Below are positions 25,147-28,758 of a DNA stretch of 64,000 bases, piece after piece. How positions within the stretch are numbered: the first letter of the stretch is position 1; the number at the start of each line of letters is the position of its first letter. The notes beneath the pieces are model-generated. The model searched no databases, was not told the origin of the DNA, and worked only from the letters and a program-made list of their open reading frames with translations. The position numbers and the translations under genes were made by a program. This DNA comes from Roseovarius sp. (GTDB taxonomy: Bacteria; Pseudomonadota; Alphaproteobacteria; Rhodobacterales; Rhodobacteraceae). Location: positions 263,569 through 327,568 of the forward strand of contig JACIYT010000001.1 in assembly GCA_014359765.1 (NCBI GenBank), in the 5' to 3' direction.

Positions 25147-25557
25147 TCAGCGCAGCTTTGGCACGCCGCCGGGATGGGTGTCGCGCTCGACCACGCCGGC
25201 GCGCAGGCTGCGCCCGATGCGGTGCGCAAGGCGCGACCAGGCGGCGGCCTGATCGGGCGCGAGTTCGCGCGCGAGAACCTGATCGAAGAGCGCAAGCCAG
25301 GTCGAGAACATCCCCGGCCGCACATTGCCCGCCCGCACATGGGCGGTCATCGGCGAGCCATCATAACAGCGCTCGTGCAGGATCGTGTTCGCCCAGAAAT
25401 CGGTGATCTTCGCCTCATGCGCGGGCCAGTCGGTGACATGCACGGCAAAGACCGGCCCGAGGCCCGGATGCGCGCGCACGGCCGCGTAGAAGGCGGCGAC
25501 GACGCGGGCGATCTCGGGCCGGGTGACGGCAAAGCGCGGGGGCAGGGCGGTGCTCAT
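25147..25557 (-). CDS. Group III truncated hemoglobin
   Basis: FYAAVRAHPGLGPVF (B10 Tyr), WPAHEAKITDFW (E7 His), PMTAH (F8 His), FSTWLALF (G8 Trp). Confidence 0.88.
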   Translation of the reverse strand: MSTALPPRFAVTRPEIARVVAAFYAAVRAHPGLGPVFAVHVTDWPAHEAKITDFWANTILHERCYDGSPMTAHVRAGNVRPGMFSTWLALFDQVLARELAPDQAAAWSRLAHRIGRSLRAGVVERDTHPGGVPKLR

Positions 25558-25563
25558 GGCCCT

Positions 25564-25592
25564 GAGATGCGACAGCGCCCGCGCACATGCAA
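25564..25592 (-). promoter_or_regulatory. Promoter candidate for the truncated hemoglobin gene (probably leaderless)
   Basis: TTGCAT-17nt-CATCTC-6nt-ATG. Confidence 0.4.
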
Positions 25593-25683
25593 GAGGGCGT
25601 CCCGCCGCATGGCGGCCGCGCCCGAAATCTTCAAAAGATTTCGGACCGCTTTCTTTCCAAGAAAGCGGTGCCCCGCGCCCTCT
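25592..25683. repeat. Cloverleaf-like element containing twin back-to-back palindromes
   Basis: Basal stem 25592-25599/25676-25683; hairpins at 25602-25615, 25622-25644 (10 bp) and 25645-25669 (11 bp). Confidence 0.75.
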
Positions 25684-25711
25684 GGACGGCTGCCGGGTGC
25701 GCGCCTATAAG
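25683..25711 (+). promoter_or_regulatory. Promoter of the ileS leader
   Basis: TGGACG-17nt-TATAAG-7nt-ATG(25719). Confidence 0.6.
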
Positions 25712-25718
25712 GCGGGCC

Positions 25719-25769
25719 ATGATGCTTGATGCCGCGATCATCATTCGAATTACATGCCCGGCGCTCTGA
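25719..25769 (+). CDS. Putative ileS leader peptide MMLDAAIIIRITCPAL
   Basis: ATC ATC ATT CGA ATT gives four Ile in five codons, 85 nt upstream of ileS; its ATG sits at the predicted TSS. Confidence 0.7.
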   Translation: MMLDAAIIIRITCPAL

Positions 25770-25854
25770 GAGATTCGAGCCGCCGGGACAAGGCGCTCGA
25801 GCCATCGCGCCGCCCCTCATCCCACCCGTTCAAGACCTGACGAAGGACGCCCCC

Positions 25855-28758
25855 ATGTGCGCCGACCTGCCCGATTACAAGGACACGCTCAACCTGCCCG
25901 AAACCGATTTCCCGATGCGCGCGGGCCTGCCTTCGCGCGAGCCTGACTGGCTCGCCCGCTGGGAGCGGATCGGGGTCTATGACCGGCTGCGCGCGCGCGC
26001 CGCGGGCAGGGCGCCCTTCACCCTCCATGACGGCCCGCCCTATGCCAACGGCCATCTGCATATCGGGCACGCGCTCAACAAGATCCTCAAGGACATGGTG
26101 GTGCGCTCGCAGCAGATGATGGGGCGCGACGCGCGTTATATCCCCGGCTGGGACTGTCACGGCCTGCCGATCGAATGGAAGATCGAGGAGGAATACCGCA
26201 AGAAGGGCCGCAACAAGGACGAGGTCGATATCGTCGATTTCCGGCAGGAATGCCGCAAGTTCGCCGAGGGCTGGATCGACATTCAGCGCGAGGAGTTCAA
26301 GCGCCTCGGCGTCACCGGCTGCTGGGATCGCCCTTACCTGACCATGGATTTCCGCGCCGAGCGGATCATCGCGGAGGAGTTTCAGAAATTCCTCATGTCG
26401 GGTCTGCTCTACCGGGGCTCCAAGCCGGTGATGTGGTCGCCGGTGGAGAAGACCGCGCTCGCCGAGGCGGAGGTGGAATATCACGACAAGGAGAGCTTTA
26501 CCGTCTGGGTGAAATTCGAGGTTGTGGGCGGCGATCTCGCGGGCGCGCATGTGGTGATCTGGACCACCACGCCCTGGACCATGCCCTCCAACAAGGCGGT
26601 CGTTTACGGTTCCGAAATCTCTTACGGGTTATACGAGGTGACGGACACGCCCGCGGAGTGCTGGGCGCGGGTTGGAGAGCGTTACGTGCTGGCGGACAAA
26701 CGGGCAGAGGATGTGATGACACGCGCGCGGCTCGAGCCGTCGATGTATCGCCGTGTCCGCGATGTGAGCGCCGGGGAACTGGCGGGGCTGTCGCTGCTGC
26801 ACCCGCTGGCGGGGGCCGAGGGCGCGGGCGGCGAATGGGACGCGCCGCGCGATTTCCGCGCCGCCGATTTCGTCACCGACGAGGAGGGCACCGGGTTCGT
26901 GCATTGCGCGCCCTCGCACGGGATGGAGGAATACGAGCTGTACCGCGATCTGGGGATGCTGGATCAGGTCATTACCTATAACGTGATGGACGATGGCTCC
27001 TTCCGGCCCGATCTGCCGTTCTTTGGCGGCAAATACATCCTTGATCGCAAGGGAAAAGAGGGCAATGCCAACAAGGCCGTCATCGACAAGCTGATCGAGG
27101 TGGGCGGCCTTCTGGCGCGCGGCAAGATCAAGCACTCCTACCCGCATTCCTGGCGCTCCAAGGCGCCGGTGATCTATCGCAACACGCCGCAATGGTTCGC
27201 CGCCATCGACCGGCCCGTGGGCGACGGGCAGGACCAATACGGCACGACGATCCGCGAGCGCGCGCTCAGATCCATCGACGAGCTGGTGACATGGACGCCG
27301 AAAACCGGGCGCAACCGGCTCTATTCCATGATCGAGGCGCGGCCCGACTGGGTGCTTTCGCGTCAGCGTGCCTGGGGCGTGCCGCTCACCTGTTTCGTGA
27401 AGAAAGGCGCGCAACCGAACGATCCGGATTACCTCTTGCGGAATGAGGAGGTGAACGCCCGGATCCTTGCCGCCTTCGAGGCCGAGGGCGCGGATGCCTG
27501 GTACAAGGCGGGGGCCAAGGAGCGGTTCCTGGGCGGAATCGTCAACCCGGACGATTGGGAAAAGGTCGATGACATTCTCGATGTGTGGTTCGACAGCGGC
27601 TCCACCCATGCCTTCGTGCTGCGCGACCGCGCCGACGGGTCCGAGGACGGCATCGCGGACCTTTACCTCGAAGGCACCGATCAGCATCGCGGCTGGTTTC
27701 ATTCCTCGATGTTGCAGGCCTGCGGCACGATCGGCCACGCGCCTTATCGCGGTGTGCTGACCCACGGCTTCACGCTGGACGAGAAGGGCAACAAGATGTC
27801 CAAATCGCTCGGCAATACCGTGGCCCCCGAGGAGGTGATCCGCCAATATGGCGCCGATATCCTGCGGCTCTGGGTGGCGCAGGCGGATTACACCACCGAT
27901 CTGCGGATCGGGCCGGAGATCCTCAAGGGCGTCGCAGACAGCTATCGGCGGCTGCGCAACACGATGCGTTTCATGCTCGGCGCGCTCGGCCATTTCCGCG
28001 AGGAGGATCGCGTCGCGCCGGGCGAGATGCCCGAACTCGAACGCTGGGTGCTGCACCGGCTGGCCGAACTCGATCACCGGGTCAGGACCGGCTATGCCGC
28101 CTATGATTTCCAGGGGGTGTTCCGCCAGCTCTTCGATTTCTGCACCGGCGATCTCTCGGCCTTCTATTTCGACATCCGCAAGGACGTGCTCTATTGCGAC
28201 GGCGACACCGCGCGCCGGCGCGCCGCGCGCACGGTGATGGACCTGCTCTTTCACCGCCTGACCACCTGGCTTGCGCCGGTGCTGGTCTTTACCATGGAGG
28301 ATGTGTGGCTTGCGCGCTTCCCCGGCGAGGAGAGCTCGGTTCATCTCGTGGACATGCCCGAGACGCCCGCCGACTGGCTCGACGAGCCGCTGGCGGCGAA
28401 ATGGGCGGCGGTGCGGCAGGCGCGGCGCGTCGTGACGGCCGCGCTCGAAGTGCAGCGCAGCAACAAGGTCATCGGCGCGAGCCTCGAGGCCGCGCCCATC
28501 GTCCATGTGCGCGATCCCGAGATGCTCGCGGCGCTGAAATCGGTCGATTTTGCGGATGTCTGCATCACTTCGGACCTGATCCTGAGCGCCGATCCACGCC
28601 CGGCCGAGGCGTTCCGCCTGCCCGAGGTGGAGACGGTGGGCGTGGTCTTCGCGCGGGCCGAGGGCGAGAAATGCCAGCGCTGCTGGAAGATCCTGCCCGA
28701 TGTGGGCAGGCACAAGCATCCCGGCACCTGCAAGCGGTGCTCTGACGCACTTGGCTGA
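25855..28758 (+). CDS. ileS: Isoleucine--tRNA ligase (type 1)
   Basis: DGPPYANGHLHIGH, WVLSRQRAWG, KMSKS, C-terminal CQRCWK zinc motif. Confidence 0.98.
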   Translation: MCADLPDYKDTLNLPETDFPMRAGLPSREPDWLARWERIGVYDRLRARAAGRAPFTLHDGPPYANGHLHIGHALNKILKDMVVRSQQMMGRDARYIPGWDCHGLPIEWKIEEEYRKKGRNKDEVDIVDFRQECRKFAEGWIDIQREEFKRLGVTGCWDRPYLTMDFRAERIIAEEFQKFLMSGLLYRGSKPVMWSPVEKTALAEAEVEYHDKESFTVWVKFEVVGGDLAGAHVVIWTTTPWTMPSNKAVVYGSEISYGLYEVTDTPAECWARVGERYVLADKRAEDVMTRARLEPSMYRRVRDVSAGELAGLSLLHPLAGAEGAGGEWDAPRDFRAADFVTDEEGTGFVHCAPSHGMEEYELYRDLGMLDQVITYNVMDDGSFRPDLPFFGGKYILDRKGKEGNANKAVIDKLIEVGGLLARGKIKHSYPHSWRSKAPVIYRNTPQWFAAIDRPVGDGQDQYGTTIRERALRSIDELVTWTPKTGRNRLYSMIEARPDWVLSRQRAWGVPLTCFVKKGAQPNDPDYLLRNEEVNARILAAFEAEGADAWYKAGAKERFLGGIVNPDDWEKVDDILDVWFDSGSTHAFVLRDRADGSEDGIADLYLEGTDQHRGWFHSSMLQACGTIGHAPYRGVLTHGFTLDEKGNKMSKSLGNTVAPEEVIRQYGADILRLWVAQADYTTDLRIGPEILKGVADSYRRLRNTMRFMLGALGHFREEDRVAPGEMPELERWVLHRLAELDHRVRTGYAAYDFQGVFRQLFDFCTGDLSAFYFDIRKDVLYCDGDTARRRAARTVMDLLFHRLTTWLAPVLVFTMEDVWLARFPGEESSVHLVDMPETPADWLDEPLAAKWAAVRQARRVVTAALEVQRSNKVIGASLEAAPIVHVRDPEMLAALKSVDFADVCITSDLILSADPRPAEAFRLPEVETVGVVFARAEGEKCQRCWKILPDVGRHKHPGTCKRCSDALG

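Follow-up and report, generated by a model that had tools for sequence, protein, structure and literature searches.

A probable ribosome-based sensor of tRNA-Ile charging, built around an invariant CGA-AUU codon pair, upstream of ileS in Roseovarius and other Alphaproteobacteria

In Escherichia coli, pheST is preceded by pheM, a short leader peptide rich in cognate codons, on which ribosome position is read out through RNA hairpins, and a stalled ribosome is expected to yield more synthetase. We analysed an element of similar outline upstream of ileS, the gene for isoleucyl-tRNA synthetase (IleRS), in a 64,000-nucleotide stretch of Roseovarius sp. DNA (GenBank assembly GCA_014359765.1, contig JACIYT010000001.1, positions 263,569 to 327,568 of the forward strand; hereafter the window). 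This leader comprises a short upstream open reading frame (uORF) and RNA hairpins, and departs from pheM in several respects. Indeed, pheM has a Shine-Dalgarno (SD) sequence and several Phe codons, and its terminator is canonical and ends in a U-tract, whereas the ileS leader carries an ORF predicted to be leaderless and one invariant CGA-AUU pair 11 nucleotides (nt) from its first hairpin, shows a U-tract in only 3 of 45 leaders of the family Rhodobacteraceae, and lacks an antiterminator conserved outside this family. Compared with classical attenuators of the trpL/pheM/ilvL type, it shares the excess of cognate codons in a short ORF, but the intrinsic terminator (helix 3:4) is absent.

The same gene and the same signal, tRNA-Ile charging, are coupled in Firmicutes and Actinobacteria by the ileS T-box, which by contrast binds uncharged tRNA directly, without translation. 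To our knowledge, the T-box is the textbook mode of ileS control and is lacking in Alphaproteobacteria, and synthetase regulation in Gram-negative bacteria beyond the enterics is largely uncharted. In Rhodobacterales, the uORFC-8-2 motif upstream of cysS has a conserved uORF with Cys codons, for which ribosome-mediated attenuation was proposed (Brewer et al. 2021, PMC8632094). The order is the same, a cognate-codon uORF before the cognate synthetase gene; the differences, by the paper’s description, are that the gene is cysS, that tandem Cys codons lie inside the first stem, and that some representatives end in a U run fitting an intrinsic terminator. Neither ileS nor isoleucine is mentioned in PMC8632094 or in one supplement file of it. 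In Caulobacter crescentus, an ‘ileS leader CDS’, CCNA_03934, was annotated from ribosome profiling and used as a negative control only (Schrader et al. 2014, PMC4117421). This is a small coding sequence 5' of ileS in an alphaproteobacterium, and PMC4117421 gives no account of its codons, structure or mechanism. The core described below is present in Brevundimonas and Asticcacaulis, so that CCNA_03934 is probably an orthologous element, likened here by annotation and not by sequence. A sequence-only reading of the window, which had singled out the leader as a candidate Ile-sensing attenuator, knew of no characterised leader-peptide system for ileS in this group. This holds in the full-text literature searched, where the Caulobacter annotation is the only mention of an ileS leader ORF in the group and no mechanistic account of a leader peptide acting on ileS in Alphaproteobacteria was found; an ileS control element of this type appears to be undescribed.

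We consider it likely that the leader is a cis-acting, ribosome-based sensor of charged tRNA-Ile that sets ileS expression, because its frame, start and stop are conserved, Ile codons are in excess at defined positions, its Ile and Arg codons are rare ones, and the same core is found before genes of the Ile pathway. Its parts are as follows, in window coordinates:

25683 to 25688, + strand: -35 element TGGACG; a T[GT][GT]AC[CG]-type hexamer lies 17 nt 5' of the -10 element in 54 of the 57 family leaders with a -10 box
25706 to 25711, + strand: -10 element TATAAG; TATAAG or TATAAC in 50 of 57 family leaders; the predicted transcription start is A25719
25719 to 25769, + strand: predicted leaderless leader ORF MMLDAAIIIRITCPAL, 16 codons plus TGA, with the stop at 25767 to 25769
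25737 to 25745, + strand: accessory Ile codons ATC ATC ATT, at positions -3 to -1 relative to the Arg codon
25746 to 25752, + strand: invariant core CGA-AUU-A, made of a rare Arg codon, a rare Ile codon and A
25757 to 25766, + strand: 5' arm of hairpin P1, CCCGGCGCTC, covering uORF codons C-P-A-L and starting 11 nt past the C of CGA
25777 to 25787, + strand: 3' arm of P1, GAGCCGCCGGG, with one bulged C and the same support as the 5' arm
25775 to 25800, + strand: alternative hairpin, P1 3' arm with P2 5' arm, which excludes both P1 and P2
25792 to 25811, + strand: hairpin P2, GGCGC ... GCGCC, 25792 to 25796 pairing with 25807 to 25811
25812 to 25842, + strand: C-rich, G-poor unstructured spacer, resembling a Rho utilisation (rut) site in base composition
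25843 to 25848, + strand: ileS SD, AAGGAC, invariant in 20 genus sequences
25855 to 28758, + strand: ileS, isoleucyl-tRNA synthetase of 967 amino acids (Pfam tRNA-synt_1, 1.9e-124; Anticodon_1; zf-FPG_IleRS)

The element is strongly conserved, both family-wide and across Alphaproteobacteria. When the IleRS N-terminus was searched in 40 related genomes, all 22 ileS loci recovered from the genus carried the leader, with the uORF ATG 6-10 nt 3' of TATAA[GCA] and a uORF of 4-5 variable codons followed by A-I-[I/L/G]-I-R-I-[T/I/M]-[C/G]-P-A-L-TGA; these uORFs differ by synonymous wobble changes (ACA/ACC/ACT, ATC/ATT) and by in-frame indels. The pattern CGAATTANNNNCCCGG was found in 271 of 301 genera of GTDB Rhodobacteraceae (one genome per genus) and in 78 of 251 genomes of the class, against a reversed-pattern control near zero; figures of invariance for family and class stem from such matches, in which the core pattern was required, and the unbiased samples are the 22 genus loci and 26 loci from pattern-negative genera. 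Among 80 fetched regions with a match, 63 lie directly 5' of ileS, each with a leaderless ORF of 14-18 codons. The 30 family genera without an exact match include 13 with near-variants and about 12 without a leader, several of the latter being AT-rich genomes. Within Rhodobacterales, the element is present in Ruegeria, Sulfitobacter, Roseobacter, Roseovarius, Paracoccus, Gemmobacter and others; beyond this order, ileS leaders were found in Acetobacteraceae, Roseomonas, Azospirillum, Aliidongia, Caulobacterales (Brevundimonas, Asticcacaulis), Hyphomicrobiales, Zhengella, Sneathiella and others.

Comparative data bear out the promoter TGGACG-17-TATAAG that the sequence-only reading had placed before the ATG at 25719. 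In the window, TATAAG is followed by 7 nt and this ATG; a TATAA[GC]-type -10 box is present in 57 of 62 genera and ends 6-7 nt 5' of the uORF ATG in 48 of these 57, and CTCTGGACG is kept at the -35 element of the ileS leaders across the genus. A consensus promoter scan of the window misses this promoter, since the sixth base of TATAAG is G where the scan demands T, and the call is rescued by its recurrence in the 57 genera. No SD precedes the uORF in any of 62 family leaders, and the predicted transcription start coincides with the A of the uORF ATG, which would make the ORF leaderless. An in-frame ATG is found in all 63 family ileS loci, and ATGs located 15-60 nt 5' of CGA are in frame in 141 cases versus 15 out of frame (107 loci), suggesting that the uORF frame is constrained far above chance. 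The ATG lies 9 codons 5' of CGA, making CGA codon 10, in 48 of 62 leaders. The stop, 21 nt past CGA in 58 of 62 family leaders and TGA in 59, sits in the P1 loop. Taken together, the conserved frame, the fixed stop and the synonymous changes are indirect signs that the leader ORF may be translated, as is the CDS call from ribosome profiling for the Caulobacter ileS leader.

The uORF of the window reads ATG ATG CTT GAT GCC GCG ATC ATC ATT CGA ATT ACA TGC CCG GCG CTC TGA, with four Ile among 16 codons, and the run of four Ile in five codons that had drawn attention to it is confirmed, as is a conserved Ile-codon uORF across the family. In 63 family genera, counting the Arg codon as position 0, Ile occupies positions -3, -2, -1, +1 and +2 in 54, 76, 63, 100 and 38% of cases and other positions in 2-8% (6% at -4 and 2% at +3, for a background of about 4%). 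This enrichment ends sharply at +2, even though the scan pattern permits AUC at +3, and the rare codons ATT and ATA account for 53% of the accessory Ile. A like excess near the Arg codon is seen elsewhere: at these five positions, Ile frequencies are 3, 17, 17, 100 and 40% in the ileS leaders of other Alphaproteobacteria, and 21, 37, 5, 100 and 5% in leaders of a class of ACT-like genes described below. What is conserved is a core made of a predicted 5'-terminal AUG, about 9 codons, CGA-AUU-A, 4 nt, and a hairpin opening with CCCGG and closing with CCGGG, so spaced that P1 starts 11 nt past the C of CGA. Both codons of the core count as rare because, in the ileS coding sequence of this genome, CGA is used for 0 of 85 Arg and ATT for 3 of 38 Ile. 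Richness in Ile is frequent in these leaders but not general: many genera have the core Ile alone, and MTWHMRLMHRITGPAL, MFRTRAQTFRITAPAG and MRTGGQRRISGPAS contain one Ile each. The idea that an Ile-codon leader peptide senses tRNA-Ile charging thus stands in part: frame, start and stop, the Ile excess and the rare codons support it, but the conserved determinant is the single CGA-AUU-A pair at a fixed distance from P1, not Ile-richness. Natural variants of the core comprise the synonymous changes AUU to AUA and CGA to CGG, as well as CCA-AUU and UCG-AUU, and one variant locus has lost the core Ile while keeping the upstream run of three.

The peptide encoded by these leaders raises the question of whether, whatever the state of tRNA charging, the nascent chain itself, ...R-I-x-x-P-A-L, arrests the ribosome in response to a small molecule, for example free Ile or a naturally occurring inhibitor of IleRS, in the manner of TnaC and SpeFL. 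Its C-terminal part looks conserved (RI[TIS]xPAL), the stop is nearly always UGA (59/62), and the same leader precedes a P-loop kinase of unknown function (AAA_33) in four genera. However, the core codons for Arg and Ile keep to CGA and AUU with little synonymous exchange, where an arrest peptide would be indifferent to codon choice, and Pro-Ala-Leu is lost when P1 covaries: Pro is replaced by Ala or Ser in the stem variants CGCGG/CCGCG, UCCGGUG/CACCGGA, CUCGG/CCGAG and CCCGACG/CGUCGGG, and Thr is also found, so that this conservation would reflect RNA and not peptide. As Pro goes whenever P1 covaries, only [Ile]n-Arg-Ile seems constrained as coding sequence, and the P-A-L tail appears to be a by-product of the P1 stem. 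Arrest peptides such as TnaC, SecM and SpeFL conserve about 8 or more residues of the nascent chain, whereas here the N-terminal 6-9 residues are unconserved and the Arg-Ile that remains falls short of any known example. Among the extra Ile codons, synonymous changes occur and rare codons are preferred, as decoding-rate sensing predicts. We therefore regard peptide arrest as very unlikely.

The sequence-only reading had noted that 25775-25787 can pair either with the 3' end of the uORF (25757-25766) or with 25792-25800, in mutually exclusive hairpins, and folding agrees: in the window, P1 reaches -18.0 kcal/mol (0 of 200 shuffles as good) and the alternative hairpin -13.8 kcal/mol (1 of 200). 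Its list was incomplete, as it missed P2 (-7.7 kcal/mol), a helix with compensatory changes. In an alignment of 47 family leaders, one per genus (A2), 95.7% of the P1 and P2 cells are paired versus 32-45% when the partners are slid, and six pairs change on both sides. These include the P2 pair 82:98, for which 30 genera have C-G and 14, possibly a single clade, have U-A. Compensatory variants of the outer P1 stem occur in four loci (L152, L157, L160 and L170), and inside CCCGG:CCGGG the inner P1 pairs average 4.8 versus 2.7 with arms swapped between loci (86 hairpins from all classes, 82 distinct inner sequences). CCGGG, which lies outside the family and class scan pattern and was included only in the pattern of a separate scan of genome contigs, is fully paired over A2 columns 69-72, while at column 73 the pair forms in 46 of the 47 genera. 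P1 and P2 are thus supported by covariation, P2 being family-specific and absent from the other alphaproteobacterial ileS leaders. By contrast, the alternative helix pairs in 78% of cells versus 29-48% slid (47 genera), without covariation; in terms of the classical attenuator, helices 1:2 (P1) and 3:4 (P2) covary, whereas 2:3 is strong in the window and compatible in 78%.

Several further pairings were considered and rejected. An extension of P2, GGG:CCC, is 83% paired with no covariation, and a pairing of uORF GCGAU with AUCGC of the P2 3' arm is 59% paired, no better than shuffles. A helix P0 (CGAAU:AUUCG) as the reason for the invariance of CGAAUUA was dismissed, as it is found in 15 of 18 loci of the ACT-gene class and is absent from Rhodobacteraceae ileS leaders. 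Mimicry of tRNA-Ile, or a T-box-like specifier, is not supported by the P1 loops, which are variable and have no GAU. A second ORF starting at a conserved NUG in the P2 loop was discarded, inspection of the sequences revealing no conserved frame or stop.

These structures bear on another explanation, that there is no sensor at all: together, uORF and P1 would make up either a 5' element that acts constitutively, as a leaderless start or as a hairpin for pausing or stability, or a site bound by a protein, for instance in IleRS autoregulation, and the Ile codons would be incidental. P1 alone is indeed the only class-wide conserved structure. In addition, the P2 loop contains a nearly invariant G (A2 column 87; columns 86-87 correspond to 25798-25799), mostly after U and 11-12 nt past P1, which is unexplained by pairing; this position fits a hairpin-dependent RNA polymerase pause, and we infer that it could mark a hairpin-stabilised pause synchronising transcription with the uORF ribosome. 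Yet a passive element does not account for a positional Ile excess of up to 18-fold, for an Ile at +1 that is invariant across more than 270 genera, or for linkage to ileS, ilvA and a cimA-adjacent gene. Nor do the variable P1 loops offer an anticodon-like GAU, and Rfam yields no T-box or other family: in a search of 4227 families over 25400-26000 (E up to 10), the only hits were weak chance matches to Pxr, L-myc IRES and npcTB_6715, with none to the T-box (stem I, T-box sequence) or to the Leu, His, Thr, Trp and Phe leader families. We give very little credence to a leader without sensing function.

The core, including its promoter-proximal in-frame AUG, is also found 5' of three other kinds of gene. 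First, a small protein of about 90-125 amino acids, with weak similarity to ACT domains and to the small subunit of acetohydroxyacid synthase (AHAS), carries it upstream in many families; at one locus this gene is followed by citramalate synthase (cimA; TIGR00977, 1.6e-75). Second, a threonine ammonia-lyase gene of the ilvA type (NF005600, 1.2e-100) is preceded by the core in Azospirillum oryzae (locus L250, NZ_VTTM01000016.1, with a 12-codon uORF MCGSARIIHPVR). Third, a P-loop kinase (AAA_33; PF13671, 5e-31) has the same type of leader in four Rhodobacterales genera. The ilvA and cimA links are Ile-biosynthetic and so provide independent support for Ile as the signal.

Further features of these loci were recorded. 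The ACT-like proteins (loci L117-L120, L126, L136-L144, L172-L178, L189-L195, L201, L205, L208, L227, L233-L236 and L249) share the motif CFSVxAxADPGxxPRVLELFAKRGLVP, with sub-threshold matches only to ACT_AHAS_ss and ACT_5. Their leaders are predicted to fold as a long rod, CGAAU pairing with AUUCG and the 5' end with the start region of the gene, and the uORF often overlaps the downstream gene start; the gene that follows the ACT-like gene is often NUDIX/DUF4743, once cimA and once, by eye, HisZ-like. The kinase uORFs, in L111 (G232), L112 (G049), L113 (G229) and L245 (Shimia aestuarii), end in RRITVPA, KRIMVPA, QRITTPA or ARITVPA before the stop, and a hairpin CCCGGCCUGAC..GCCGGGCCGGG follows in L111-L113. 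The kinase may be linked to IleRS or to Ile stress.

How could such a leader report on charging? In the sensor reading, the transcript would start at the A of ATG 25719 and a ribosome would load straight on its 5' end, read about 9 codons, meet the three accessory Ile codons, and then CGA, decoded by I:A wobble, and AUU, decoded by G:U wobble. The mRNA entrance of the ribosome, with its helicase, lies about 11 nt past the first base of the P-site codon. When CGA occupies the P site and AUU the A site, P1 would therefore begin right at this entrance, which makes AUU the last codon on which a ribosome can wait without opening P1. When Ile-tRNA-Ile is scarce, the ribosome would dwell at the Ile codons, P1 would stay folded and P2 would fold. 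When it is plentiful, the ribosome would unwind P1 and halt at the UGA in the P1 loop; the 5' arm of P1 would then be buried in the ribosome and, in the window, its 3' arm would be free for the 5' arm of P2, at the expense of P2. Ribosome position would thus select between two RNA states, which, we infer, decide how many transcripts reach ileS, a stall presumably giving more IleRS. The useful Ile positions reach back to -3, where the ribosome is clear of P1, and end at +2, which suggests that what counts as the signal is a ribosome not entering P1, and not one that masks the P1 5' arm.

The step at which these states would act was assessed from the sequence downstream of P2. The absence of a U-tract terminator, already remarked on in the sequence-only reading, is upheld: a scan of the window found no terminator-like site, only 3 of 45 family leaders have a run of at least 4 U no more than 12 nt from P2, and an intrinsic terminator is excluded for most leaders. 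Unmasking of the SD was likewise rejected, as folding of 62 family leaders gave no consistent change: by constrained partition-function folding, the unpaired probability from SD to AUG is 0.44 for the free leader, 0.47 when the uORF is masked and 0.44 when a ribosome is terminating on it (0.44 vs 0.47, p = 0.06). This result bears directly on translational attenuation as in ermC, in which a stalled ribosome, together with one queued at the 5' AUG, would cover 5' strands and free the ribosome-binding site of ileS. In 48 of 62 leaders CGA is the tenth codon, so that roughly one ribosome would fit between it and the AUG, in keeping with a queued ribosome, and in the ACT-gene class the 5' end (AUGAC...) is predicted to pair with the downstream SD and AUG (...GUCAUG), alongside P0 in 15 of 18 loci. 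Against this, the accessibility of the SD hardly moves in the family ileS leaders, which also lack P0-type pairing, and many genus members hold the SD in the loop of a small hairpin of its own. An ermC-like mechanism is therefore an unlikely alternative, and control of ileS translation in general is not a very probable output.

Since the spacer is C-rich and G-poor, with a skew that runs into ileS, we tentatively favour Rho-dependent premature termination, in the spacer or in early ileS, as the output, which is one of the two put forward in the sequence-only reading. The tract at 25811-25838 contains, as had been counted before, 15 C and 3 G in 28 nt and is followed by the ileS SD; family spacers (n = 45) average 41% C and 16% G, a skew of +0.45, and the excess of C over G (+0.4) continues to about +70 of ileS. 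In the Rho-type leaders tnaC, mgtL and speFL, uORF translation decides premature termination without an intrinsic terminator and a C-rich, G-poor region follows, a likeness that here is one of composition only; TnaC and SpeFL are ligand-sensing arrest peptides, unlike the reading proposed for the ileS leader. Premature termination that depends on a uORF has been described in an alphaproteobacterium, for duf1127 of Sinorhizobium meliloti (PMC12218461). There, a C-rich element lies in the first uORF codons, whereas the ileS uORF has no C>G skew, and a rut element inside the uORF was rejected on this ground. In the spacers of many genera we also observed a recurring CUGAC/UGACA word, unexplained, and in one genus member (L012, genome G004) the C-rich spacer, between P2 and the ileS SD, has gained about 115 nt by insertion; with the other parts intact, this extends the leader to 258 nt (from 5 nt past the -10 box to the ileS ATG) versus 140-147 nt in the others.

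The same sensor could instead be read out through mRNA stability, a dwelling ribosome shielding a putative entry site for ribonuclease E (RNase E), the invariant, single-stranded and AU-rich GA↓AUU beside a stable hairpin, so that slow Ile decoding stabilises the ileS mRNA. RNase E prefers RN↓WUU, which G-A↓A-U-U fits. Such a mechanism would explain why CGAAUUA, with its rare codons, is fixed to the nucleotide in a genome of 68% G+C, and why the element stands before unrelated downstream sequences without a conserved competing helix; it also agrees with the absence of a terminator and of SD switching. The natural variants CCA-AUU, UCG-AUU and CGA-AUA, however, break the fit to RN↓WUU, and P2 and the fixed stop in the P1 loop are left without a role. 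We judge this alternative improbable as a full account; ribosome protection of the AU-rich GA↓AUU, taken simply as the output step, is somewhat less so, though still hardly to be expected, and some other output step deserves about as much weight.

Several points weigh against the sensor reading as set out here. Many leaders have a single Ile codon, little for a sensor to work with when judged by textbook cases, and the invariance of CGA-AUU-A at the nucleotide level exceeds the needs of codon sensing alone. The alternative hairpin shows no covariation in the 47 family genera, and outside the family no competing helix is conserved (in all classes, duplex energies of the P1 3' arm equal those of swapped controls), so that a structural switch may not operate generally. 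If a stalled ribosome leaves both P1 and P2 folded, what switches ileS on is not obvious. As for Rho, base composition is all that points to it, and the rut-like spacer extends just 31-45 nt or so before the SD.

Other observations concern this genome and its relatives. Besides ileS, the only match to CGAATTANNNNCCCGG in an exact-pattern scan of the genome lies in the rho coding sequence (GCGAATTACCTGCCCGG, with a 16-nt core encoding ANYLPGP; contig C23, about 77865-77880, outside the window); it recurs in the same gene in many genomes and was set aside as a chance match that contaminates pattern scans. A relaxed scan for further copies in this genome gave 81 matches, of which only the ileS leader was judged promoter-like in context. 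In leader-bearing genera, ileS nearly always starts AUG UGC/UGU GCC (Met-Cys-Ala; 25855-25863 in the window), and in genera that lost the leader its second codon is often Ser or Pro (L146, L150, L162). The gene 5' of the leader, at 25147-25557, is divergent and has no family match. Between it and the ileS promoter lie two adjoining AT-rich perfect palindromes, at 25624-25642 (GAAATCTT-CAA-AAGATTTC) and 25645-25669 (ACCGCTTTCTT-TCC-AAGAAAGCGGT); the first recurs 4 times and the second twice in the genome, with the order of the pair reversed on contig C5. Comparable paired palindromes occupy the same site in the genus loci L002, L012 and L018, and other sequences do so in L008, L015 and L156. 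The pair looks like a small repeat similar to repetitive extragenic palindromes (REP) or like a bidirectional element.

In conclusion, it is possible, if doubtful, that these leaders represent both an undescribed attenuator design and an Ile regulon across Alphaproteobacteria, in which a leaderless mini-ORF with CGA/AUU at the foot of a hairpin, read out by hairpin entry rather than by the masking of a competing strand and without an intrinsic terminator, controls ileS, threonine dehydratase, the ACT-like gene (sometimes with cimA) and the AAA_33 kinase, with output through Rho or RNase E. If confirmed, the element would provide a compact sensor whose geometry (codon pair, 4-nt spacer and hairpin) is fixed to the nucleotide, making the rules of ribosome-hairpin encounters testable. 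It would also tie the ACT-like small proteins and the AAA_33 kinase to Ile or to IleRS stress, offering a clue to what they do and perhaps to the ways in which cells naturally respond to IleRS inhibitors. For the organisms concerned, it would mean charging-responsive control of ileS in marine roseobacters, Paracoccus, relatives of Rhodobacter, Acetobacteraceae, Azospirillum and relatives of Caulobacter.

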